Part shown: positions 1,939 through 19,371 of the stretch, piece after piece
How positions within the stretch are numbered: the first letter of the stretch is position 1
Layout of the letters: each line of letters starts with the position of its first letter
DNA from: an uncultured virus (IMG/VR IMGVR_UViG_3300040815_001293)
Taxonomy: Duplodnaviria; Heunggongvirae; Uroviricota; Caudoviricetes
DNA length: 20,000 bases
Virus record (IMG/VR): IMGVR_UViG_3300040815_001293
Reading direction: 5' to 3' (one strand)
Position numbers and translations under genes: made by a program
Notes under the pieces: model-generated
Told to the model about the DNA's origin: nothing
Database searches by the model: none
What the model saw: the letters and a program-made list of their open reading frames with translations, nothing else

Positions 1939-3513
1939 ATGACATACAAAGCCCTCGACGGCGTATTAGTAAAAAAGCCACATCAGAACCAACGTTGGAC
2001 TGAAGAACAGTTAATAGATTTTAAAGAGTGTGCAGATTCTAACACAGGACCTGCTTATTTTTTAGGTAAGTATTTTCATATTCAGCACCCTGTTGACGGC
2101 AAGATTCTTTATAAACCATACAAGTATCAAGAAACTTTAGTCAACAGTTATCACTCTAATAGATTTAGTATTAATTTATTGAGTAGACAAATGGGAAAAA
2201 CTACAACTGCGGCTGGATACTTGTTGTGGTATGCTATGTTTGTACCAGACAGTACTATATTAATTGCGGCACACAAATATTCAGGTGCTCAAGAAATCAT
2301 GCAGAAGATTCGATACGCATATGAACTTATGCCAGATCATATTAGAGCGGGGGTAACAAGTTACAATAAAGGCAGTATAGAATTTGAAAACGGAAGTAGA
2401 ATTGTAGCACAAGCAACAACAGAAAACACAGGACGTGGTATGAGTATTACGTTATTGTACTGTGATGAGTTTGCGTTTGTAAGACCAACTATTGCAAAAG
2501 AGTTTTGGACAAGTATTTCACCAACATTAGCAACTGGTGGTAAAGCAATTATTACAAGCACACCTAACAGTGATGAAGATCAGTTTTGGTTATTGTGGAC
2601 AGAAGCAAACAGGACTATTGATGATTACGGACATCCTTTAAAAGATGGAATAGGGATAAACGGATTTTTTGGCTTTAAAGCATTATGGCGAGAACATCCT
2701 GACAGAGATGATGAATGGGCTAAAGAAGAATTAGGTCGTATTGGAGAAGAACGTTTTAAACGTGAAATGGACTGCGAACCAATTATATTTGATGAAACAT
2801 TAATCAATGCAATTAGATTAGCAGAGATGGAAGGTAAAGAGCCAATTGAAAGACAAGGTCAAGTACGTTGGTTTAAAAAACCTAAAAAAGGCAGTATATA
2901 CTTAATAAGTTTAGATCCAAGTTTAGGAACGGGTGGAGACAATGCGGCAATACAGGTTATAGAAATGCCTTCACTAGAGCAAGTTGCAGAGTTTATGCAC
3001 AATAAGACACCTATTGTACAGCAAATAAAAATAATGAAAGAAATAGGTGAGTATCTAGTACAGCAAATAGATGAACCTAATGATGTTTATTACAGCGTTG
3101 AAAACAATACGCTAGGAGAGGCGGCACTAGTTACAATACAAGAAATTGGTGAAGAAAATATACCAGGTTTCTTTATTAGTGAACCTAAAGGACATGGTAA
3201 TAGCAAAAGGTTTCGTAGAGGATTTAATACAACACATAAATCAAAAATCTCAGCCTGTGCTAAATTAAAGAGTTTAATTGAAACTAAAAGATTAACTATT
3301 AATAGTAGACCTCTGATATCAGAACTAAAGTCATTTGTGGCTGTGGGCAGTAGTTATCAAGCCAGACCAGGAGAAACTGACGATTTAGTTATGTCTTTAG
3401 TACTAGCAATACGCATGAGTATGGTGTTAAAGAAGTATGATGCTGGTATAGATGAGCTTTTAAGCGACAATTTTGACGATATAGTAGAACCCATGCCTAC
3501 ATTAATGTTATAA
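1939..3513 (+). CDS. terL: Terminase large subunit, T4 gp17-like
   Basis: Walker A SRQMGKTT, Walker B LLYCDEFAF, coupling motif ITSTPN, RNase H-like nuclease acidic residues (SLDPSLG, VENN, DDLVMSL). Confidence 0.96.
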   Translation: MTYKALDGVLVKKPHQNQRWTEEQLIDFKECADSNTGPAYFLGKYFHIQHPVDGKILYKPYKYQETLVNSYHSNRFSINLLSRQMGKTTTAAGYLLWYAMFVPDSTILIAAHKYSGAQEIMQKIRYAYELMPDHIRAGVTSYNKGSIEFENGSRIVAQATTENTGRGMSITLLYCDEFAFVRPTIAKEFWTSISPTLATGGKAIITSTPNSDEDQFWLLWTEANRTIDDYGHPLKDGIGINGFFGFKALWREHPDRDDEWAKEELGRIGEERFKREMDCEPIIFDETLINAIRLAEMEGKEPIERQGQVRWFKKPKKGSIYLISLDPSLGTGGDNAAIQVIEMPSLEQVAEFMHNKTPIVQQIKIMKEIGEYLVQQIDEPNDVYYSVENNTLGEAALVTIQEIGEENIPGFFISEPKGHGNSKRFRRGFNTTHKSKISACAKLKSLIETKRLTINSRPLISELKSFVAVGSSYQARPGETDDLVMSLVLAIRMSMVLKKYDAGIDELLSDNFDDIVEPMPTLML

Positions 3514-3519
3514 AAAAGG

Positions 3520-3525
3520 TAAATA
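3520..3525 (+). promoter_or_regulatory. Putative late promoter TAAATA directly before the 823-aa gene
   Basis: ggTAAATAgtaatATG: box lies 5 nt before ATG 3531, leaving no room for an SD. Confidence 0.55.
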
Positions 3526-3530
3526 GTAAT

Positions 3531-6002
3531 ATGCAAATACACAACAAAGTAGCCAACGATTTATATGGCATTTTAGCCAAGAAGTTTACTAAATTGACTA
3601 TTGCAGATAGTCAAGCAGTAACTACAGTTGAACCATCAGAAGGTAGAATTTTTACTTTAGAATATGGGGCAAGTGGTAAAAGTTATGGCAGTGTCACTGT
3701 AAACGTAGTAGATCCTAACTCTTTAGTAGTTTATTATAATACTAACATTAGTGAAGATATGCGTTACAATGATAAAAAAGATTGGTATGCTTTTTTAAAA
3801 GAATTAAGATATTTTTCTAAAAGAAATTTAATGAGTTTTGATGTTCGTAATATTGGTAAGCAACAGTTAGATAAAACTGATTATGCTTATATAAAATCTA
3901 ACGATAATAGTTATGATAGTTCAGAAGTAACTTTTGAAAGTAAATTAACAGGCACATTAAAAACATCATATCAACCATTTGGTGAAAATGTTAAATTAGT
4001 TATTAAACATAAAACACCAGTTGATGAAACTGTACGTGGTTCTAGAAGTAGAAGCATACATAGTTTGTATATAGAAAATGCCGACCAAGGAAGATTTAAA
4101 CTTCCTTTTAAAAGTTTAATTGCCGCGAGAGCAATGGCAAATCACGTTGCAAACAACGGATCATATGATGATGAAATTGGACAGCACATACATGAAATAA
4201 CACAAGAAGCCTACGATTTAACAAGGTTTGTTAAAACTTTCAGACGTGCTGATAACTTTGCTGAACAAGATGAAGCACAGAAAATTATTGAACAAGCAAA
4301 ACAACGTTATCAAGGTATTAGAGAAACTTTAAAAAGTTTATCAAAGCCTAAAGGATACGCAAGTTATGTAGAACAATATAAACCAACAGAAGATAATGTT
4401 GAACAAGCAGACTTAGATGAAATTAGAGGAAAGTTAGTTCGCATTCAAAAAGATAATATAGTAGACACAATACTGCCAAATTTGGCTAGAGGGATTAATA
4501 AAATGAAAGTACAAGAAACTGATAAATCTTTAGCACACAATCTTGCAAAAGATCCAAGTGCTAATTTAGAATTACGTCCGCATCCAGAAGAAGATGCAGA
4601 TATTAAAAACTATATGGCTCATATCAAAAAGATGATCATAAGAAAAGACAAAACTTCTGAAAATCCACAAGATGGTATTGTTAGAAAAATTATTATGTCG
4701 TTAGCAAAACGTACTGTTGACGATGCACTTTCTTTACAAATAAGTGATTTAGGTTCTATGGACAGTAAAGAAGATAAAACAGCGGCTTATCAGTTAGCCT
4801 CTAAATATTTAAAAGGCAAAGTTTCAGAGATCCCATTTGCTAGTAAAACTAAAGCAAAAACAGAAGAAGATCAATACGAAAGTATAATGAATAATTTATC
4901 AGAAGGTACTTGGGCAATTCCAGATACTGAAGAAGCAGTAAATAAACTAGAAAGTTTGATGGCAGATGTACTTCCCCTCGGTGCAGAAGGCGACAACGCA
5001 ACTAGTACAATGTACGGTATTATTGGTGATGATGAGTTATTTGATAACTTAGGAGACGCAGGAGATAAAGATCCACAAGGTGATGCTCGTCCAATTATTT
5101 GTGCATGGGTAAAAGAAAATTTAGATGGATACGATATACCAGCAGAATTAAACAGTAAAATCCATGATATTTGCAACAAGTTTACAGGTGTTGCAGAAGG
5201 TGGAGTTAAGAGATCATTAGAAGATGACGCTGAAAATTTAAGCAAAGAAGAGTTTATGAAAAAACATGGCGGACCTAATGCAGATGATGAGTCAGCATCC
5301 AATTTCTATGACAACTATAATGGTGTAGATGAAGCAGAAGTTCCAGAAGGAAACGAATTCACAGATGCTAGAAAAAAAGCCATTGATGCAGGTGAAACAG
5401 AATTTGAAGTAGATGGCAAGAAATATAAAGTTACTGGTGATACATCAGATGAGAAAAAGCAAAATGAAAACGTTGTAGACAACGCCGCTGATTCTGAAGG
5501 TATAGAAGAAATAGCAGATGCAATTAAATTCCGTATTACTGCAAATCCAGAAACATTTGAAAAGATATTAAAACATACAGATATGCAAACACTATTATCG
5601 GCAATCGAAAGTGTTGCTGAATTCCATGCTCCAATGGAGGAGTTAGGATCAAGCGATATTAGTGCTATGGTTAAAGAAGTGATGCAAGATTTAGGTGTTA
5701 AAGAAGAATATATTTTTAATGGCGAAAAAGTTGAAGAAGCACAAAGCCCGGCGCAAAAAGCCGCTTTTGAAAAAATGCTTGCCGCTAAAAAAGGTAATAA
5801 AAAAGACGATAGTAAGGAAGAAGAAAAAGAAGACGTTAAAGAAGAAGACGCTTATGACGGAACTCCTGAAGAAGTTAAAAAACTAAAAGCAAAAGAAAAA
5901 GCCGAAAAAGAAGAAGACAAGAAGAAAACTGAAGAATCAGTTGAAACACCGGCTGATCAGCATTTAGTAGACGAAATCTTATTTTTAGCAGGGTTGAAAT
6001 AA
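3531..6002 (+). CDS. Large phage protein with globular N-terminal half and acidic, modular C-terminal half; probable virion/head-associated protein
   Basis: 823-aa ORF directly after terL. Many (V/L)xE(G/A/E) sites, an EGNEFTDARKKAIDAGETEFEVDGKKYKVT module, a K/E-rich tail, and ends DEILFLAGLK. Function is inference. Confidence 0.7.
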   Translation: MQIHNKVANDLYGILAKKFTKLTIADSQAVTTVEPSEGRIFTLEYGASGKSYGSVTVNVVDPNSLVVYYNTNISEDMRYNDKKDWYAFLKELRYFSKRNLMSFDVRNIGKQQLDKTDYAYIKSNDNSYDSSEVTFESKLTGTLKTSYQPFGENVKLVIKHKTPVDETVRGSRSRSIHSLYIENADQGRFKLPFKSLIAARAMANHVANNGSYDDEIGQHIHEITQEAYDLTRFVKTFRRADNFAEQDEAQKIIEQAKQRYQGIRETLKSLSKPKGYASYVEQYKPTEDNVEQADLDEIRGKLVRIQKDNIVDTILPNLARGINKMKVQETDKSLAHNLAKDPSANLELRPHPEEDADIKNYMAHIKKMIIRKDKTSENPQDGIVRKIIMSLAKRTVDDALSLQISDLGSMDSKEDKTAAYQLASKYLKGKVSEIPFASKTKAKTEEDQYESIMNNLSEGTWAIPDTEEAVNKLESLMADVLPLGAEGDNATSTMYGIIGDDELFDNLGDAGDKDPQGDARPIICAWVKENLDGYDIPAELNSKIHDICNKFTGVAEGGVKRSLEDDAENLSKEEFMKKHGGPNADDESASNFYDNYNGVDEAEVPEGNEFTDARKKAIDAGETEFEVDGKKYKVTGDTSDEKKQNENVVDNAADSEGIEEIADAIKFRITANPETFEKILKHTDMQTLLSAIESVAEFHAPMEELGSSDISAMVKEVMQDLGVKEEYIFNGEKVEEAQSPAQKAAFEKMLAAKKGNKKDDSKEEEKEDVKEEDAYDGTPEEVKKLKAKEKAEKEEDKKKTEESVETPADQHLVDEILFLAGLK

Positions 6003-7375: not shown

Positions 7376-8881
7376 ATGGATTATGTTATCTGGGCGTTAA
7401 TTGGCACCTGTTATGGAATGCTAGTTGGTATTATACCTATCGCAGGTGTAACTACCGCCCTGATAACTGTCTTTAGCATGGGAGCATACTTTATGGCTGA
7501 CCCCTATTTGGGGTTAGTCTTTCTTACTGCAATCGTGGCAAGTTGTGCCAGTGCAGATAGTTATACAAGTATTCTAACAGGTATACCAGGTGCTAGTACG
7601 ACAGCGGCTTGTGTTATTGATGGTTATCCAATGGCAAAGAAAGGCCAGGCGGCAAGAGCAATGGGAATTGCTATTACTGACTCTACATTTAATGGAGTTA
7701 TATTCGCGGCATTAACTTTCTTTTTACTTCCTTATTATGGGAAGGTTATCGTATTATTTGGACGTCCAGAGTTTCTGGGATTCATGACAATGGCCCTAGC
7801 CTGTGTAGGCTTTGTGGCAAGTAAAAATGTATTTTTAAGTATCTGTGCAATCATATTTGGATTAGCAGTGGGTATGGTAGGAGAAGATGTTGTAAGTAAT
7901 CCTAGACTGACATTTGGTTGGGAATATTTACAAAATGGAATTGGTATGGTAGTTTTACTATCAGGATTATTTGGAGTTCCAGAATTATTAGATGGATTTA
8001 GAAAAAAATTAAAATCAGCGGCACCGCCAATGGAAGGCAATTACTATGAAGGCTTAAAAGAAGGCTTTGGAGATTGTAAAAAGAATTGGCGAGACATGGC
8101 CCGAGGCGGAATAATTGGTTTTGTTACTGGTTTACTACCAGGTGTAGGAGGAGCAGTAGGAGACTTTTTGGCGTATGGAGCCACAAAAGCCGCACATAAA
8201 GAAAAACAAGAGGTTCCATTTGGCTCAGGTAACCCAATTGGATTATTAGGTTGCGAAGGCGCCAACAACGCACAGAAAGTATCTAGTATGATACCTGCTT
8301 GTTTGTTCGGTATTCCTGCGGCACCATTTGCCGCTATGGTTATGGCAATCTGTATGTACTTCGGTATGGAGATTGGCACACCTAGTCTACTAGATGATTT
8401 ACAGTTCACAAATAGTTTAGCATTTGGTTATATATTTGGAACTATCGGTGTAGCACTATTAAGTATATTCTTATATAAATGGATTCTTAAAATATTAGAA
8501 GTTCCTTTTTGGATATATGCTACATTTATTTTAGCAGTGATTGTTTATGCTAATATGCAATACACAGGCGGCTGGGAAGACTTGGCACTGTTAACAATTT
8601 TAAGTGCAATTGGATGTGTATGTAAACACTTTAATATCAGTAGACCAGCAATTCTTGTTGCATATGTTGTAGCATTTAAAATTGATGAATACTTTTGGGG
8701 AACATTACAATTATACGGATACAAACAATGGAAGCCAGGCTTAACTTCTATGGAAGGATTTAGATGGGGAGAATTATTTAACATCTACAATCATCCTATC
8801 TTTCTTGTATGTATTGTAGTTGCACTAGGCATATTCATAAATAGTTTAGTAAGAAAAGATAAAGGATTGGATTATACATAG
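7376..8881 (+). CDS. tctA: Tripartite tricarboxylate transporter large membrane subunit (TctA family)
   Basis: 501 aa, multi-pass hydrophobic; TctA hallmarks SILTGIPG, VIDGYPMAKKGQA, GLLPGVGG, EGANNA, FGIP. Confidence 0.92.
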   Translation: MDYVIWALIGTCYGMLVGIIPIAGVTTALITVFSMGAYFMADPYLGLVFLTAIVASCASADSYTSILTGIPGASTTAACVIDGYPMAKKGQAARAMGIAITDSTFNGVIFAALTFFLLPYYGKVIVLFGRPEFLGFMTMALACVGFVASKNVFLSICAIIFGLAVGMVGEDVVSNPRLTFGWEYLQNGIGMVVLLSGLFGVPELLDGFRKKLKSAAPPMEGNYYEGLKEGFGDCKKNWRDMARGGIIGFVTGLLPGVGGAVGDFLAYGATKAAHKEKQEVPFGSGNPIGLLGCEGANNAQKVSSMIPACLFGIPAAPFAAMVMAICMYFGMEIGTPSLLDDLQFTNSLAFGYIFGTIGVALLSIFLYKWILKILEVPFWIYATFILAVIVYANMQYTGGWEDLALLTILSAIGCVCKHFNISRPAILVAYVVAFKIDEYFWGTLQLYGYKQWKPGLTSMEGFRWGELFNIYNHPIFLVCIVVALGIFINSLVRKDKGLDYT

Positions 8882-9642: not shown

Positions 9643-10284
9643 TTGAAACCAATACTAACAATAATGACAGGACCACAAGGTAGTGGTAATCATCTATTCA
9701 GTAAAGCATTAGGTCAAAATAAAAATATTTTTGCATGGCCTAGTTTACAAGAAAAGTATTGGGAAGGGCACGACTTAGAACCATTTGCAGAATATTGGAA
9801 ACACCCTAGTAGATTAAACAGATTTGACTGGACTCAAAGTTATCATTATGCAACAAGTATCAGTTGTCCATATTTTGATGATGGTAAAGAAACTATTCCA
9901 AATTATAAAAAATTTACAAAAGAAGCAAGTAAATATGCAAATATCCAATTTGCTATTATTGGTAGAGATAAAAACATATTAGAATTACAACAAGCGAGAG
10001 TAAGGGGTAAACTTACTACTCCTTTTTTTATGAAAGAGATTGAATATATAATCTCAAATTATAAAACAATTTTTGCAAGTCAAGAGTTATTATACCTGTA
10101 TAAATTATCTTATTTAAATTGGTTAGAAACAGAAATAGGGTTATTGCCATTAGAACTAACTACTAATGATACTATACTTTTAAAAATATTGAATACTGAC
10201 GCCAATGCAAAATATATATCACAAGCAGAGTCGAAATTAGACGAAACAATAAAATTAGCAAGTAGTAAAAAAGGTGCAATATGA
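9643..10284 (+). CDS. Sulfotransferase-like P-loop protein (TTG start)
   Basis: N-terminal IMTGPQGSGNHLF resembles a degenerate 5'-PAPS-binding loop (GxxRSGT) and IIGRD resembles the 3'-phosphate-binding RDP motif; adjacent to an APS kinase. Confidence 0.5.
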   Translation: MKPILTIMTGPQGSGNHLFSKALGQNKNIFAWPSLQEKYWEGHDLEPFAEYWKHPSRLNRFDWTQSYHYATSISCPYFDDGKETIPNYKKFTKEASKYANIQFAIIGRDKNILELQQARVRGKLTTPFFMKEIEYIISNYKTIFASQELLYLYKLSYLNWLETEIGLLPLELTTNDTILLKILNTDANAKYISQAESKLDETIKLASSKKGAI

Positions 10285-10724
10285 AAATTTTAATATTTGG
10301 CTTGCCCGGTAGTGGAAAAACTACACTAGCAAAGCCAATGGCGGACTTACTCGGTGCAATACACATTAATGCAGACGAAGTACGCAAAACTTATGATGAC
10401 TGGGACTTTAGTTTAGTAGGTCGTTTAAGACAAGCCCAACGTATGCGTCATTTAGCAGACGGTGTTGTTATGGCAGGAAAAATTGCTATAGCAGATTTTG
10501 TTTGTCCTACTGAACAAGCACGAAAAGAATTCAATCCAGATTATACAGTTTGGATGAATACTATAAAAGAAGGTCGTTATGAAGACACGAATACTATGTT
10601 TGAAGATCCACTTCATTATGATTATCATGTAGCAGAATGGTTTACTGATACACATCAACAACTTTCAGCAGTTATAAAAAATTATATCCTTAGAAAAGAA
10701 AATAAGCCTACAGGGAGATTATAA
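10281..10724 (+). CDS. cysC: Adenylylsulfate (APS) kinase-like protein
   Basis: GLPGSGKTT P-loop, NADEVR, DFSLVGRLRQ, ADFVCP...R and FEDP mirror the CysC motifs; ATGA overlap with the upstream gene. Confidence 0.8.
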   Translation: MKILIFGLPGSGKTTLAKPMADLLGAIHINADEVRKTYDDWDFSLVGRLRQAQRMRHLADGVVMAGKIAIADFVCPTEQARKEFNPDYTVWMNTIKEGRYEDTNTMFEDPLHYDYHVAEWFTDTHQQLSAVIKNYILRKENKPTGRL

Positions 10725-11113
10725 TGTTTGACTGGAAAAAACCAACAACACAAATGTTAGGCAGATGGCAACCTTGGCACGATGGTCATACAGAGCTTTT
10801 TAAACGTGCATTAGCACAATCTGGACAAGTGATTATTATGGTAAGAGATGTACAAGGAGCAGATGCTGGTATGGGTAATACTGATAATCCTTTTGATTTT
10901 AACCAAGTTGTAGTCAATATACGCAATGGTTTAGAAAAGCATGGATTTACAATGAATCAAGAGTATATTGTTATGAAAGTACCTAATATTATCGACATAA
11001 GTTATGGTAGAGGTGTAGGTTACACATTTACAGAACATGACTTAGGAAAAGAAATACATAACATTAGTGCAACAAAAATCCGTGCAAATATGCGGAATTC
11101 TGGTAAATTATAA
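10724..11113 (+). CDS. HxGH-family nucleotidyltransferase (cytidyltransferase-like)
   Basis: GRWQPWHDGH and C-terminal ISATKIR; TAATG stop/start overlap with cysC. Confidence 0.8.
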   Translation: MFDWKKPTTQMLGRWQPWHDGHTELFKRALAQSGQVIIMVRDVQGADAGMGNTDNPFDFNQVVVNIRNGLEKHGFTMNQEYIVMKVPNIIDISYGRGVGYTFTEHDLGKEIHNISATKIRANMRNSGKL

Positions 11114-11131
11114 AAAAAGATAAAAAACCGG

Positions 11132-11160
11132 TTGACTTTGATTACCCAATACTGTATATT
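11132..11160 (+). promoter_or_regulatory. Sigma70-type promoter driving the non-coding element
   Basis: TTGACT (11132-11137) - 17 nt - TATATT (11155-11160), preceded by an A-tract. Confidence 0.7.
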
Positions 11161-11166
11161 AATAAT

Positions 11167-11395
11167 TAACAACTAACACAAAAGTCTTTATAAAACTTTT
11201 GAGTTTGTGGCGGAACAACTCTTCGGCAGAGGGGTAACGCACACTAATTCTTTTTAGGCGCCCGAGTGGGTAGGTTTAAGAGGAGGTGGTTCTAGTATAT
11301 TTCATATCTAAACCTTGCAAAAAATAGATGTGATCTGCTATTAGAAAGTTGGGGGTGAGTTCACAGCAAGGCCCTCCGAACAGTTAGTTGTAACA
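11167..11395 (+). ncRNA. Putative structured non-coding RNA of unknown family
   Basis: No meaningful ORF; about 52% GC over 11201-11290 by hand count versus a strongly AT-rich background; terminal helix acaactaac (11169-11177)/gttagttgt (11383-11391) encloses several hairpins; bounded by two promoters. Confidence 0.6.
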
Positions 11396-11421
11396 ATTAT
11401 TTCACATTCAGAAAAAAAAGG

Positions 11422-11450
11422 TTGACTTTGGATAAGAAGATAAATATAAT
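11422..11450 (+). promoter_or_regulatory. Composite promoter for the SSB gene: sigma70-type plus embedded late box
   Basis: TTGACT (11422-11427) - 17 nt - TATAAT (11445-11450), with TAAATA at 11441-11446. Confidence 0.75.
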
Positions 11451-11537
11451 TGTTAGCAGTACATCAGGAAGGTGTACAAATTGCTATCATAGGCAATATT
11501 ATTAATAACATAACTAGGCAAAAGAGAGGCATATATT

Positions 11538-12551
11538 ATGGCATCATTAGCAGATATCCGTGCGAAACTACAAGCACAGGACACCCGCTCACAAGGCGGA
11601 AACCGCGGCGGCGACAACGCAATTTTCCCACATTGGAACATTTCAGAAGGACAAAGTACAACACTTCGTTTTCTTCCAGATTCCAATTCACAAAACACAT
11701 TTTTCTGGGCCGAACGAGCAATGATTCGTTTACCGTTCCAAGGCATTAAAGGACAAGTAGATAGTAAACCTATTACTGTTCAAGTACCTTGTATGGAAAT
11801 GTGGGAACCAGTAGGTTCTTGTCCAATTCTAGCAGAAGTTAGACCGTGGTTTAAAGACAGTTCTTTAGAAGACATGGGTCGTAAGTATTGGAAAAAGAAA
11901 TCTTATGTATTCCAAGGTTTTGTGCGTGATAATCCATTAGATGAGGAATCTCCAGAGAATCCAATTCGTAGGTTTATTATGGGACCACAATTATTCAACA
12001 TTATCAAGGCATCTTTAATGGATCCTGATATGGAAGAATTACCAACAGATTACAATAAAGGAATTGACTTCCGTGTTGTAAAAACTTCTAAAGGTGGTTA
12101 CGCAGATTATTCAACTTCTAATTGGGCAAGAAAAGAAACTGCTCTTTCTGAAGAAGAACAAAAAGCGATTGAAACATATGGTCTATATGACTTAAATGAT
12201 TTCCTTCCTAAAAAACCTAATGAAGCCGAAGTTGGCATTATCAAACAAATGTTTGAAGATAGTGTCGATGGTAAGGCATATGACTCTGAAAAGTTTGGAC
12301 AATATTTCCGACCTTCGGGAGTACAACTACCGGACAATGGTAGTGCTAAAACAGTAGAAGCGGCTCCAACGCCAACTCCTACTGCAACTCAGACATCTGC
12401 TCCAGCAGAAACTGTGTCTGCTCCACAAGTTGAAGCAGTTGCAACTCCGGTTGCGGCACCTGTGGCAACACCGGCCCCAGCAACATCAGGTGGTGAATCA
12501 GGACAACGTGCTGAAGATATTTTAGCAATGATTCGTTCAAGACAACAGTAA
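11538..12551 (+). CDS. 32: Single-stranded DNA-binding protein, T4 gp32-like
   Basis: LRFLPD, VPCMEMW...CPIL, KYWKKKSY, GIDFRVVKTSKGGYADYSTSNW match the gp32 core; lies upstream of uvsX. Confidence 0.88.
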   Translation: MASLADIRAKLQAQDTRSQGGNRGGDNAIFPHWNISEGQSTTLRFLPDSNSQNTFFWAERAMIRLPFQGIKGQVDSKPITVQVPCMEMWEPVGSCPILAEVRPWFKDSSLEDMGRKYWKKKSYVFQGFVRDNPLDEESPENPIRRFIMGPQLFNIIKASLMDPDMEELPTDYNKGIDFRVVKTSKGGYADYSTSNWARKETALSEEEQKAIETYGLYDLNDFLPKKPNEAEVGIIKQMFEDSVDGKAYDSEKFGQYFRPSGVQLPDNGSAKTVEAAPTPTPTATQTSAPAETVSAPQVEAVATPVAAPVATPAPATSGGESGQRAEDILAMIRSRQQ

Positions 12552-14360: not shown

Positions 14361-14649
14361 TATAAGTAAAAAAGCAGTAGAAATACTGTCAGAATACAAT
14401 AAATTCTCAAAAGAGTATAGTAAATATGTTACCGCACTTACTGAAGAAGATAATGAGAATCCAAATTGTGTAAAATTTAAACAACAAAAACATACATTGG
14501 ATCAACTAGCAGACGATTTAAATCGTAGTTTTAAAAAAGTAAGTTCAAATGTATTTGACAAAAAGATAACAAATACAGAACGTAAGTTAGAACAAGTAAA
14601 AGTTGATTTCATGAAGGGAATGTTAAATAATGGATTTCTTATTAAGTAA
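14347..14649 (+). CDS. Hypothetical coiled-coil protein
   Basis: In-frame ATG at 14347 overlapping the uvsY end is more plausible than the ORF-track start at 14317; fills the gap to the next gene. Confidence 0.6.
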   Translation: MYHYNISKKAVEILSEYNKFSKEYSKYVTALTEEDNENPNCVKFKQQKHTLDQLADDLNRSFKKVSSNVFDKKITNTERKLEQVKVDFMKGMLNNGFLIK

Positions 14650-15382
14650 CCCAGCCAATTCTAGACTACACAGTCTTAATTTTTTAAATCAAATATACGG
14701 ATATCCTGAAATGCTAGAAAGCATTGACAGTGTATTAGATGTTGGAAGTCGTGATGGACACGATGCATTTTGGTGGGCAATGTGTGATGATGGAGATGAA
14801 CAAAATCCAATACCTCTTAATATTAATGTTACTGCATTAGATAAAAATCCTGTTTGGAATACAGATTTTGAACATAAAAATATTAATAAAGTAAAAGGCG
14901 ACTGGGATGAAATTACATTTGATAAAAAGTTTGATGTAGTTTGGGCTCATAGTGTTTTACAAGAAGCAAAAGATCCATTAAAATTTTTACATAAAATGAA
15001 TGAAGTTTGTTCAGACGGGGGAGTTTTATGTTTAAGTTTTCCAAGTAATGTTAATACCTTTTATGGAGAACCTGATCATAGAGTGTATGATACTGCAACA
15101 CATCATATTACTATTGTAAGTTTAATTCATATGTTGGCACTGAGTGGTTTTAATACGAGAGACGGATTTTTACATAAACAACCTAATACTAACATCATTA
15201 ATGCATTTGTTTACAAAGATTCAAATGAAGTTTATGATTATAATGAAAAAACAATAAGCGATTTACTAGATTTAATGCCTGAAGTTTGTTCTGAACAAAT
15301 AAACAAATTTGGGTATTTAACAAATAAAGGATTGCTATTAAAATGGTTATCTGGTACCATTGTAGACTACTCAAACGTCTAA
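14630..15382 (+). CDS. Class I SAM-dependent methyltransferase
   Basis: Motif I VLDVGSRDG, VTALD, FDVVWAHSVL, DGGVLCLSFP. Confidence 0.82.
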   Translation: MDFLLSNPANSRLHSLNFLNQIYGYPEMLESIDSVLDVGSRDGHDAFWWAMCDDGDEQNPIPLNINVTALDKNPVWNTDFEHKNINKVKGDWDEITFDKKFDVVWAHSVLQEAKDPLKFLHKMNEVCSDGGVLCLSFPSNVNTFYGEPDHRVYDTATHHITIVSLIHMLALSGFNTRDGFLHKQPNTNIINAFVYKDSNEVYDYNEKTISDLLDLMPEVCSEQINKFGYLTNKGLLLKWLSGTIVDYSNV

Positions 15383-15413
15383 TATATTGTAGCACAACTA
15401 GATAAGTACTTAT

Positions 15414-16187
15414 ATGAAGAAACTTGTGCTAGTAACGGGCGGATTTGACCCCTTACACGACGGACATATATCCTATTTTATTGATGCTAAAAAACTCGGA
15501 GACAAGTTAATTGTAGGCGTTAACAGTGATGAGTGGCTCAGACATAAAAAAGGCAAAGAGTTTCAAAGCCTAAACATTCGTAAAACAATCATAAAACATT
15601 TAGACATGGTATCTGATGTCATCGAGTTTGATGACAGTGATGGCACTGCCTCCGGTGCTATAGAACTCTTACTAAAAGAGTACCCGCATGATGAAATCGT
15701 TTTCGCCAATGGAGGAGACCGGGTAGAAGAATCAACACCTGAAGTTAAAAAATTTGCATCTAAAGACAGAGTGTCATTTAAATTCAATGTAGGTGATGAA
15801 AAGAAATATGGTTCTCGCGATTTCCTTGCTTCTTGGGTAAATGCAAAAACAGATAGACCATGGGGTCATTATAAAATTTTATATAGAGACGACGGTGTTA
15901 AAGTAAAAGAGATTGTAATTAATCCAGGTAAGTCTTTATCATACCAAAAACATAATCTTAGAAGTGAACTTTGGCTAGTTACTAAAGGTGACGTTGCTAA
16001 TAATATTGAACACCCAGAAGATCCAAGACTAATTCATCAGCAAGTACTACACAAACACGAGTTCACAAACATAGAACCAAATACTTGGCATCAGTTAAAT
16101 AATCCTAGTACAGAAGATGTAAAACTTGTAGAAATACAATACGGCGAAAAGTGTACCGAGGAAGATATAGAACGTAAAGATGAATAG
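15414..16187 (+). CDS. Cytidylyl/adenylyltransferase (RfaE/TagD-like) fused to a type II mannose-6-phosphate isomerase-like cupin
   Basis: N-terminal VTGGFDPLHDGH, GVNSDEWL, FANGGDR; C-terminal RPWGHY...SLSYQKHNLRSELW...WHQLNNP...VEIQYG...EEDIER. Preceded by gaTAAGTActtatATG. Confidence 0.85.
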   Translation: MKKLVLVTGGFDPLHDGHISYFIDAKKLGDKLIVGVNSDEWLRHKKGKEFQSLNIRKTIIKHLDMVSDVIEFDDSDGTASGAIELLLKEYPHDEIVFANGGDRVEESTPEVKKFASKDRVSFKFNVGDEKKYGSRDFLASWVNAKTDRPWGHYKILYRDDGVKVKEIVINPGKSLSYQKHNLRSELWLVTKGDVANNIEHPEDPRLIHQQVLHKHEFTNIEPNTWHQLNNPSTEDVKLVEIQYGEKCTEEDIERKDE

Positions 16188-17004
16188 TATTAGAACATCA
16201 CAGTGTAAACATGGAAAGTTTTCTTACTTTACTAATGATACTATCATTGGGAAAAGTTTAGATATGTACGGCGAATACTGTGAACAAGAATTTATAGTAA
16301 TGTCGCACATGATACAACCAACGGATTTTGTATTAGACATTGGAGCAAACATAGGACTACATACAATATGGTTTGCCAAACACGCATTTCAAGGACAGAT
16401 AAGTTCTTTTGAACCAAACGAGTTCAGTAGAGAATTGTTATATAAAAATTTAGCAAACAATCAAACTTCAAACGTGCAAGTGTATAATAATTGTATAGGA
16501 GACAAAATCTCTTCAGTTTTTATAAGTTCTTATAGTCCACATATTCCAGGAAACTATGGAGAATGTACAGTACTAAACAAACGTTCTGGACCTTTTCACA
16601 CTTCGCAAATGGTTACTATTGACGGATTGCAACCAATAAAGGCAGACTTTATAAAGATAGATGTCGAAGGTTATGAAAAAGAAGTAATTATAGGTGCTCG
16701 CGAATCTATTAAAAAATTTAAACCAGGAATGTTAATTGAAGTTAATGACAATAAAGAACATATAGACTTTTTATGGAATGAACTAGTACCACAGGATTAC
16801 TTATTATGGTGGTTACCAGTTAGAAATTATAATCCAAATAACTTTAGAGGTGAGAAGAACAACATCTTTTTAAACAGTGGTGTTATAAATGTTGTTGCCT
16901 GCCACAGATCAAAAGCACAAGTTAATACATTAGATAAGATATTAACACCTATACAAGGTGCAGACGATACCTACATAAAAATGCATAAAAGATTACAGTA
17001 CTAG
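16180..17004 (+). CDS. FkbM-family methyltransferase
   Basis: VLDIGANIGLHT, SFEPN, FIKIDVEGYE. Confidence 0.9.
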   Translation: MNSIRTSQCKHGKFSYFTNDTIIGKSLDMYGEYCEQEFIVMSHMIQPTDFVLDIGANIGLHTIWFAKHAFQGQISSFEPNEFSRELLYKNLANNQTSNVQVYNNCIGDKISSVFISSYSPHIPGNYGECTVLNKRSGPFHTSQMVTIDGLQPIKADFIKIDVEGYEKEVIIGARESIKKFKPGMLIEVNDNKEHIDFLWNELVPQDYLLWWLPVRNYNPNNFRGEKNNIFLNSGVINVVACHRSKAQVNTLDKILTPIQGADDTYIKMHKRLQY

Positions 17005-17340: not shown

Positions 17341-17408
17341 AAAAGGTTGACAGATAGGACAAAGATGCTATTATATAAGAGTAAGTTAATTAATAGGAGA
17401 TAAAAAAT
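17341..17408 (+). promoter_or_regulatory. Early promoter + RBS cassette, copy 1
   Basis: AAAGG-TTGACA (17347-17352)-16 nt-TATTAT (17369-17374) with TGn extension, then aagttaa and AGGAGATA. Confidence 0.8.
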
Positions 17409-18479: not shown

Positions 18480-18800
18480 ATGCAGATAGATTTACACGGA
18501 TATACAAAACACGATGCATGGAAACGATTTAAGAATCATGTAGAAATATGTGACTTAAATGGTCTTCGTAAATTTGTGGTTATTACTGGATATGGTGCAA
18601 TATATGACGAATTGCCCAAGTGGTGTGAAGCAATATCTTGTATATCTGAGGTAAAAACTATGCTACCAAACCGTGGATCCTACCAAATTATACTAAAAAA
18701 GAAGAAAAAAGATTTAAAAGTTTCTATAACCTCAAAAAACCCAGTAAAATCAACGGTTAATATAGCACCTTTATTAAAGAAATGGGGTTCTAAAGGTTGA
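18480..18800 (+). CDS. Stand-alone Smr (MutS2 C-terminal) domain protein
   Basis: IDLHGYT...A, VVITGYG and NRGSYQIILKK match the Smr signature motifs. Confidence 0.82.
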   Translation: MQIDLHGYTKHDAWKRFKNHVEICDLNGLRKFVVITGYGAIYDELPKWCEAISCISEVKTMLPNRGSYQIILKKKKKDLKVSITSKNPVKSTVNIAPLLKKWGSKG

Positions 18801-18858
18801 CAGATTCGCAAAAGATGTTATTATAATAGTATAAGTTAACAAAAAGGAGATACTAAAA
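18792..18858 (+). promoter_or_regulatory. Early promoter + RBS cassette, copy 2
   Basis: AAAGG-TTGACA (18797-18802)-16 nt-TATTAT (18819-18824), aagttaa, AGGAGATA; near-copy of 17341-17408. Confidence 0.8.
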
Positions 18859-19300: not shown

Positions 19301-19371
19301 AAAGGTTGACACTATAGCAAATGGTGTTATTATTAATAATATAAACATAAAACGACGAATAGGAGAAATAT
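19301..19371 (+). promoter_or_regulatory. Early promoter + RBS cassette, copy 3
   Basis: AAAGG-TTGACA (19306-19311)-16 nt-TATTAT (19328-19333) with TGn; AGGAG at 19361-19365. Confidence 0.75.

Follow-up and report, generated by a model that had tools for sequence, protein, structure and literature searches.

Among phage-associated RNAs, ROOL and GOLLD are large molecules that form RNA-only cages; they are often found near tRNAs, multimerisation through loop contacts has been proposed for them, and their function is not established. Phage T4 provides a smaller example, the pseudoknot lying inside the gene 32 mRNA leader, which is the autoregulatory operator of gp32. The manA RNAs (RF01745), an orphan "riboswitch candidate" since 2010, come closer to the RNA considered here. 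They were first described as riboswitch candidates occurring in 5′ UTRs, and the pairing of their P4 end loop with their P5 loop was drawn as "pseudoknot?", as worded in the figure legend (Weinberg et al. 2010, PMC2864571). A cryo-EM preprint (10.64898/2026.07.01.735769) reports that manA RNAs assemble in vitro, via kissing loops, into pentamer-based decamers and a 60-subunit cage, and that manA variants have a common core with differing outer helices. In the literature on manA RNA, no account was found of a subfamily adjacent to genes for single-strand DNA binding proteins (SSB).

The DNA analysed here, called the window, is a 20,000-nt fragment of a large marine phage that also encodes UvsX and UvsY. 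The nearest viral record (G001) is 34 kb long and estimated to be 10% complete. The main landmarks of the window are the following:

1939-3513, T4-type large terminase gene
7376-8881, plus strand, TctA transporter gene
10281-11113, plus strand, split kinase/cytidylyltransferase
11132-11160, plus strand, promoter P1, GGTTGACT (-35), 17 nt and TATATT (-10); consensus scan, 10 of 12 matches
11167-11392, plus strand, structured RNA of about 225 nt, supported by fold z-score, match to covariance model R1, covariation and RNA-library contigs
11420-11450, plus strand, promoter P2, GGTTGACT (TTGACT from 11422), 17 nt and TATAAT; 11 of 12 consensus matches
11457-11537, plus strand, conserved SSB leader with the GUUAGCA...UUGCUAUC hairpins, outside the RNA
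11538-12551, plus strand, gp32-like SSB gene (phrog_1192, E 3.5e-69)

A gap of 424 nt separates the cytidylyltransferase-like gene from the SSB gene. As the initial annotation had it, the plus strand of 11161-11421 contains no ORF of at least 20 aa (the gap being clear until 11422) and the GC content is locally raised, with a maximum of 0.49 at 11200-11299 in surroundings of about 0.30-0.36.

Other genes of the window have features of their own. The TctA gene (7376-8881, plus strand) is full-length (PF01970, E 2.9e-87), corresponds to the large subunit of the tripartite tricarboxylate transporter and is an unusual phage auxiliary gene. The adjacent ORFs 10281-10724 and 10724-11113 (plus strand) represent the N- and C-terminal halves of the phrog_10255 "kinase", covering positions 2-115 and 124-228 of the 230 in that profile, and this kinase and cytidylyltransferase-like pair (10281-11113) is a single fused gene in relatives. 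Two methyltransferase-like genes and a heptose kinase/adenylyltransferase-like gene are clustered at 14630-17004 (plus strand) and may constitute a sugar-nucleotide or DNA-modification module.

The TTGACT-17-TATATT promoter claimed for the RNA was recovered as a promoter-like site at 11132-11160, putting the predicted start near 11167, and so was the separate promoter claimed for the SSB gene (TTGACT-17-TATAAT, 11422-11450), which promoter P2 serves. Both are instances of the phage's GGTTGAC...TAnnnT motif, present in the window in five copies, all on the plus strand, with 0.2 expected. This arrangement is kept in related RNAs, the distance from the -10 hexamer to the GTGGC core motif being exactly 52 nt in 6 of 7 relatives and a GGTTGAC promoter site lying 3′ of the RNA in 7 of 8. 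No terminator-like site was found between the RNA and the SSB gene (11390-11537). Elsewhere in the window, the promoter-like sequence GGTTGACA...TATTAT occurs on the plus strand at 17345-17374, 18795-18824 and 19304-19333, with an AAAGATG spacer element common to all three sites, which look like a second flavour of phage promoter.

The leader that immediately precedes the SSB gene is a conserved element in its own right. It is nearly identical in the closest relative, L003, despite an SSB protein only 82% identical, and it can be folded into nested hairpins, GUUAGCA...UUGCUAUC and GUACA...UGUAC, with a GUUAGCA...UUGCUAU frame that recurs in L166, L169 and L184. This leader may be a gp32 autoregulatory operator.

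The RNA itself, with a 5′ end inferred from the promoter and a 3′ end set at the end of the closing helix, is made up of the following elements:

11169-11177, plus strand, 5′ arm of the closing helix, pairing with 11383-11391
11179-11201, plus strand, P0 hairpin of 7 bp
11203-11207, plus strand, 5′ strand of helix P1 (GUUUG), pairing with 11377-11381 (CGAAC) and closing a four-branch junction
11208-11243, plus strand, P2, a UGGCG/CGCACA stem, an internal loop GGAACAA/GUAAC and an inner hairpin CUCUUC-GGCA-GAGGGG
11249-11281, plus strand, P3, with 11249-11252 pairing with 11278-11281 and a terminal hairpin GCCC-GAGU-GGGU (11260-11271)
11290-11346, plus strand, P4, with an outer stem (11290-11297/11339-11346), an inner stem (11302-11310/11325-11333) and a terminal loop (11311-11324)
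11313-11318, plus strand, CCUUGC in the P4 terminal loop, fully complementary to GCAAGG in the P5 loop (11366-11371)
11351-11376, plus strand, P5, GGGGG/CCCUC with a 16-nt loop (UGAGUUCACAGCAAGG), aligning to manA P5
11383-11391, plus strand, 3′ arm of the closing helix, pairing with 11169-11177

The segment 11161-11401 has a minimum free energy of -72.4 kcal/mol (z -4.42), equalled by none of 200 shuffles, and its minus strand folds more weakly (z -3.44). The comparison of homologues suggested by the initial annotation bore out an RNA fold. Over 8 distinct lineages of the window type, pairing is kept in 93.3% of cells and both partners change in 21 of 69 pairs, a covariation matched by none of 500 shuffles, and slid controls pair at most 47.6% of cells. 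In the same lineages the G-U pairs are invariant on the plus strand.

Most of the stems that had been proposed from the sequence hold up in relatives. The closing helix (acaactaac/gttagttgt), which is misaligned by column and was assessed one sequence at a time, reaches at least 8 bp (8-16 bp) in all 7 relatives with a 5′ flank, against 0 of 300 shuffles for each; its proposed extension aataatt/aattatt, which the window shares with L164 alone and which falls on the likely start or ahead of it, is not supported. L003, whose RNA is 95% identical to that of the window, carries a compensatory pair in this helix among its few RNA differences. The caaaagt/acttttg stem corresponds to P0, where both partners change in 5 of 7 pairs among 8 relatives, and the tgtggcg/cgcaca stem with its inner hairpin to P2, the most conserved core of the family, which shows compensatory changes in L166 and aligns to manA GUGaCUGAAUAA...UAAgGu. 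Helix P1, which aligns to manA P1, has 100% of its cells paired and 3 of its 5 pairs changing on both sides. The gccc/gggt stem stands as the terminal hairpin of P3, whose outer pairs change on both sides in 2 of 4 cases within the window type; for helices 5 and 6 taken family-wide the figure is 8 of 8 pairs. P5 is the proposed ttggggg/cctccga stem, real but with its register off by one; a G-C pair is replaced by A-U in L194, and family-wide 3 of its 5 pairs show changes in both partners. By contrast, aggttta/taaacct and aatag/ctatt are not supported. They compete with P3 (two compensatory pairs) and with the long P4, which fit the relatives better, and being invariant in 8 relatives they cannot be tested by covariation. 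In P4, UUCUA/UAGAA becomes UUCGA/UCGAA or UUGGA/UCCGA in relatives, and the inner stem has 98.6% of cells paired, with 3 pairs varying on one side only.

The complementarity of the P4 and P5 loops makes CCUUGC/GCAAGG a candidate pseudoknot or kissing contact. Neither hexamer varies in any of the 8 relatives, although the remaining loop positions do, so that covariation cannot test the pair; of 5000 loop shuffles, 30 produced a loop-loop complement of at least 6 bp. The corresponding loops (P4 end and P5) of 15 true manA RNAs are complementary and covary, reading CUGU/ACAG in 12 and AUGU/ACAU in 3. The same comparison in the relatives designated type A below gave ambiguous registers. An invariant, self-complementary UUGCAA palindrome is also present in the P4 loop (11315-11320), overlapping CCUUGC, and the P0 loops of the window (11185-11195) and of L164, L169, L184, L185 and L194 contain lineage-specific A/U palindromes of 6-8 nt (UUUAUAAA, UUAUAA, UAAUUA). 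Such palindromes could be self-kissing loops but are commonly expected in A/U-rich loops, and those of the P0 loops were for that reason given no weight.

Searching 80 SSB loci with the RNA by blastn and nhmmer returned only near-identical copies; the 77 other loci (SSB proteins 55-70% identical) lack the RNA and have upstream gaps of at most 202 nt, mostly 50-200. Its relatives were reached through short patterns. One based on the 37-nt P2 core motif matched at least 81 viral contig stretches, another based on the P3 hairpin matched 10, and a metagenome scan added 3 further lineages; L189, entered three times among the 13 metagenome pattern matches, proved unrelated and was discarded. Contigs of cellular genomes gave 20 pattern matches, of which only one, on a 569-nt MAG contig, is a true member according to R1, with some 50 chance matches expected for the pattern by our own estimate. 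The isolate phage collection yielded no match for the window region or type A, and type C was matched there by a tRNA only. R1, a covariance model made from 15 family members, recovers the window (199 bits, 11171-11387) and 75 of the 75 family loci searched. In an alignment of 54 distinct family sequences fitted to this model, pairing holds in 95.3% of cells and both partners change in 28 of 39 pairs, a result equalled by none of 500 shuffles. R1 found no match in four related large contigs (G002-G005), all of them fragments, for which absence is thus not implied.

The family members occur in several arrangements. The window type is organised as promoter, RNA and second promoter, the downstream gene being SSB in 4 lineages and a head protease in L138. 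The RNA of types A (45 loci) and B (5 loci) stops 10-20 nt upstream of AGGAGG and an ATG, and type A is followed by a gene for a Pam3 gp33-like protein. Type C (21 loci) is much longer, with R1 matches of up to about 335 nt, and is associated with tRNA arrays, several loci (e.g. L087) lying directly 3′ of a tRNA gene. Type C loci such as L087 and L136 share with the window RNA the 5′ core GUGGCGGAACAA...GUAACGCAC and a 3′ element, and R1 scores 22-50 bits on them over the full model. The carrier phages are of unrelated types, ranging from roughly 58 kb to 340 kb, and include a 52-kb contig (estimated 89% complete), a 65-kb contig (83%) and a complete 296-kb genome; the window-type carriers are fragments estimated to be 6-15% complete. 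One copy is present in each.

The surroundings of some of these loci were also recorded. Type C RNAs have tRNA genes and group I introns at distances of no more than a few hundred bases, the introns scoring 64-75 bits (L088 116-308, L131 527-719, L110 662-835 and L117 347-539). The type A RNA of L177 (G008, 3413-4199, minus strand), whose phage measures about 58 kb, occupies a gap flanked by divergent genes, with a DNA helicase gene on one side and, on the other, an operon encoding Pam3 gp33-like, gp34-like and primase proteins.

The initial annotation recognised no known RNA pattern in the sequence and regarded it as possibly a new family. This stood as far as database thresholds are concerned, since the whole window has no Rfam match at gathering score and ARAGORN found no tRNA or tmRNA genes, in keeping with what had been stated. 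It did not stand entirely, because manA aligns, weakly, over its full length (11191-11386, 13.1 bits, E 0.32, with a gathering score of 55.2) and does so significantly with relatives. The manA model matches window-type L166 with 24.4 bits (E 1.5e-4), all 13 type A RNAs with 24.5-35.0 bits (E 1.8e-6 to 7.6e-3) and some type C loci with 14-22 bits (22 in L122), these E-values already accounting for 4227 families. It found no match in three type B loci (L093, L094, L121), in window-type L184 and L194 at E 10, or in L138 and L142 at E 1. When family loci were scanned by E-value, manA alone among Rfam families was placed on the RNA; the window RNA is overlapped by two chance-level matches, mir-2187 and ZEB2_AS1_2. 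A manA search of five related large contigs returned nothing, these being fragments for which absence is thus not implied. In L107, the type C RNA is followed by a second weak manA-like match (593-682, 20.9 bits, E 0.094), which could be a tandem module.

The ends of the manA matches agree with the independently found RNA ends, and the alignments include P0, P1, P2, P5 and junction letters. The order of helices is that of manA (a 5′ hairpin, then a junction closed by P1 and bearing P2, P3, P4 and P5), and the junction letters GUG.C.GAA.AA ... UAA.G and UUGG..ACAG..CC are common to both. The P2 internal loop reads GUGaCUGAAUAAaCUU ... UAAgGu in manA, GUGGCGGAACAAC ... GUAACGC in the window and GAAUAA ... 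AUAAUGC in L166, the loop being 4 nt shorter than in manA. P3 and P4 are unaligned to manA, model positions 66-150, approximately, being unplaced in both the window and L166. In cyanophage P-SSM2, a true manA (181.6 bits) starts right after its own TTGACA...TATAAT promoter and ends 15 nt before the start codon of a purL-like gene.

The first alternative to be weighed is that the RNA represents a separate, new family whose likeness to manA is due to chance or convergence. The lack of any match at gathering score, the low manA score of the window itself and the unaligned P3 and P4 would fit such a reading, as would the fact that models built here from either family miss the other: R1 detected true manA in 0 of 1 and 0 of 80 loci, and R2, the manA model built here, in 0 of 30 family sources, with a score of only 4.1 bits at the expected position in L113. 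However, the matches of all 13 type A RNAs and L166 run over the full manA model and point to no other family (E down to 1.8e-6), their ends coincide with the RNA ends, helix order and junction letters are the same, a loop-loop pair is located at the same place, and both groups share the same habitat, in marine phages. We consider independent origin unlikely, convergence having about one chance in five by our reckoning, and a real manA-like RNA quite probable. On the strength of the full-length alignment, the significant E-values of relatives and the shared helix order, the sequence is best read as belonging to a phage-restricted family, itself a divergent form within the manA kind; it is filed as such, and not as an Rfam-level member, since neither home-made model finds the other family.

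Sequences from RNA libraries bear on how the RNA is produced. The stretch is present in 20 such runs, in all of them as contigs, which indicate presence only, not strand, ends or level, with DNA carry-over possible. In the four runs examined, belonging to four studies, contigs invariably cover the RNA and never the upstream gene at 10846-11028. Three of these runs have contigs ending at 11179, 11183 and 11184, that is, 12-17 nt past the predicted start, a weak hint of a start near promoter P1. Two runs have contigs reaching the SSB gene, 11062-11895 in run X1, which begins upstream of promoter P1 and extends into SSB, and 11183-12551 in run X8, which goes from the RNA through SSB, so that the RNA may form the 5′ portion of a long SSB mRNA. 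The look into metatranscriptomes advised by the initial annotation thereby returned coverage of the RNA in 4 of 4 runs, although two contigs run into SSB and contigs do not give ends or strand. Contig ends at 11373-11377 were considered as RNA 3′ ends and rejected, as they coincide with sequence common to co-occurring variants and reflect assembly breaks. Run X1 also contains, beside the window's own variant, a 392-nt contig of a related variant (L166/L194-like flanks) that matches window positions 11300-11377; the two variants within this run mean that several lineages co-occur in one estuary sample.

These contigs are relevant to a second alternative, of slightly lower standing and likewise improbable in our view, in which the RNA would be a cis-regulatory, riboswitch-like leader: transcripts from promoter P1 would carry the fold at their 5′ end and reach SSB, and the sensing of a ligand or protein would tune SSB output. 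The bridging contigs in 2 of the 4 runs and the lack of a detectable terminator between the RNA and SSB agree with it, and SSB is the downstream gene in 4 lineages. Moreover, manA itself was proposed as a 5′ UTR riboswitch candidate (Weinberg et al. 2010, PMC2864571), the P-SSM2 manA ends 15 nt before a start codon, and type A and B RNAs end 10-20 nt before AGGAGG and ATG. Yet in the window the SSB start lies 146 nt beyond the RNA, with a complete promoter (11 of 12 matches) in between, and this promoter, being downstream, would yield SSB transcripts without the RNA. An expression platform, either a terminator or an RBS-masking helix, was looked for and not found, with a promoter standing in between. 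Nor is there the coherent class of downstream genes that a riboswitch would suggest, given the head protease of L138, the Pam3 gp33-like protein of type A and the tRNA arrays of type C, and the RNA is missing from 77 related SSB loci. A processing or stability element, with the closing helix cut by a double-strand RNase or the 5′ structure protecting a long SSB mRNA, would account for the 8-16 bp closing helix kept in 7 of 7 relatives, for the missing terminator and for the contigs bridging into SSB, but is highly improbable, since a simple stem would suffice and a conserved multi-branch core of about 200 nt with invariant loops across unrelated phages exceeds that need.

The best overall explanation, to which we assign a probability of roughly 0.6, is that the plus strand at 11167-11392 encodes a compact, structured, non-coding manA-like RNA of about 225 nt made from its own promoter. 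The view of a discrete multi-helix RNA with its own promoter, and not simply an SSB leader, was already that of the initial annotation; covariation, the fixed position of the -10 hexamer, the second promoter and the RNA-library contigs speak for it. In the proposed model, the RNA would be transcribed from the sigma-70-type promoter P1, and SSB from promoter P2 further downstream. Fold, family, placement of the promoters and presence in RNA libraries are all shown by the data. A long closing helix joins the 5′ and 3′ ends of the molecule, enclosing P0 and the P1-closed four-branch junction of P2-P5, and the CCUUGC of the P4 end loop could pair with the GCAAGG of the P5 loop. The manA core (P0, P1, P2, P5 and the junction letters) is shared, with different outer helices P3 and P4. 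The RNA might be released from read-through transcripts by cutting at the long closing helix, and might then assemble with its own copies through loop-loop contacts, as manA does in vitro.

The RNA probably acts in its own right and not as an SSB switch, a view we infer from the next gene having its own promoter, from the variety of the next genes and from the enlarged relatives in tRNA arrays; taken together, the two promoters and these enlarged relatives argue against a simple cis-regulatory role. Self-assembly as its mode of action, a reading drawn from one preprint and from analogy with manA, is put forward tentatively, as somewhat less probable than not. More doubtful still is the broader proposal that the manA kind would be a superfamily of phage "structural" RNAs, not riboswitches, made independently from their own early promoters or within tRNA arrays; its SSB-adjacent subtype, marked by the invariant CCUUGC/GCAAGG loops and the self-complementary UUGCAA, would form an RNA-only oligomer or cage while jumbo marine phages infect their hosts.

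What is new with respect to manA is a diverged subfamily that has the manA core, different outer helices, its own promoter and a second promoter before the next gene. The at least 81 viral contig stretches with the core motif indicate that the Rfam manA model misses a sizeable share of the manA kind in marine viromes. The subfamily also offers naturally occurring variants with which to ask what elements of the fold determine the geometry of assembly.

In comparison with the other known systems, ROOL and GOLLD are several-fold larger than the window RNA and unrelated to it in sequence and fold, and no match to either was found in the window at Rfam gathering score. As at T4 gene 32, a gp32-type SSB gene is preceded here by a structured RNA; unlike the T4 leader, the manA-like RNA is located 5′ of the SSB promoter, and the proximal leader at 11457-11537 is a separate conserved element. 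Of the features of a stand-alone sRNA gene, the fixed-position promoter is present and no terminator-like site was detected. The window RNA differs from manA in its loop-loop letters (CCUUGC/GCAAGG, manA having CUGUA/UACAG), in an extra closing helix of at least 9 bp, in the sequence and length of P3 and P4, and in its occurrence beside SSB in jumbo-phage-like contigs. It also differs from the 5′ UTR position of manA by the 146 nt and promoter P2 that precede the SSB ATG, the start-codon-adjacent position being matched by its type A and B relatives. In common with manA, it is found in marine phages, starts just 3′ of its own sigma-70-type promoter, falls within about 190-220 nt, has a P2 internal loop resembling the GAA.AA/UAA of manA and a P5 that begins with UUGG and bears ACAG in its loop, and presents a P4 end loop complementary to the P5 loop, a candidate contact.
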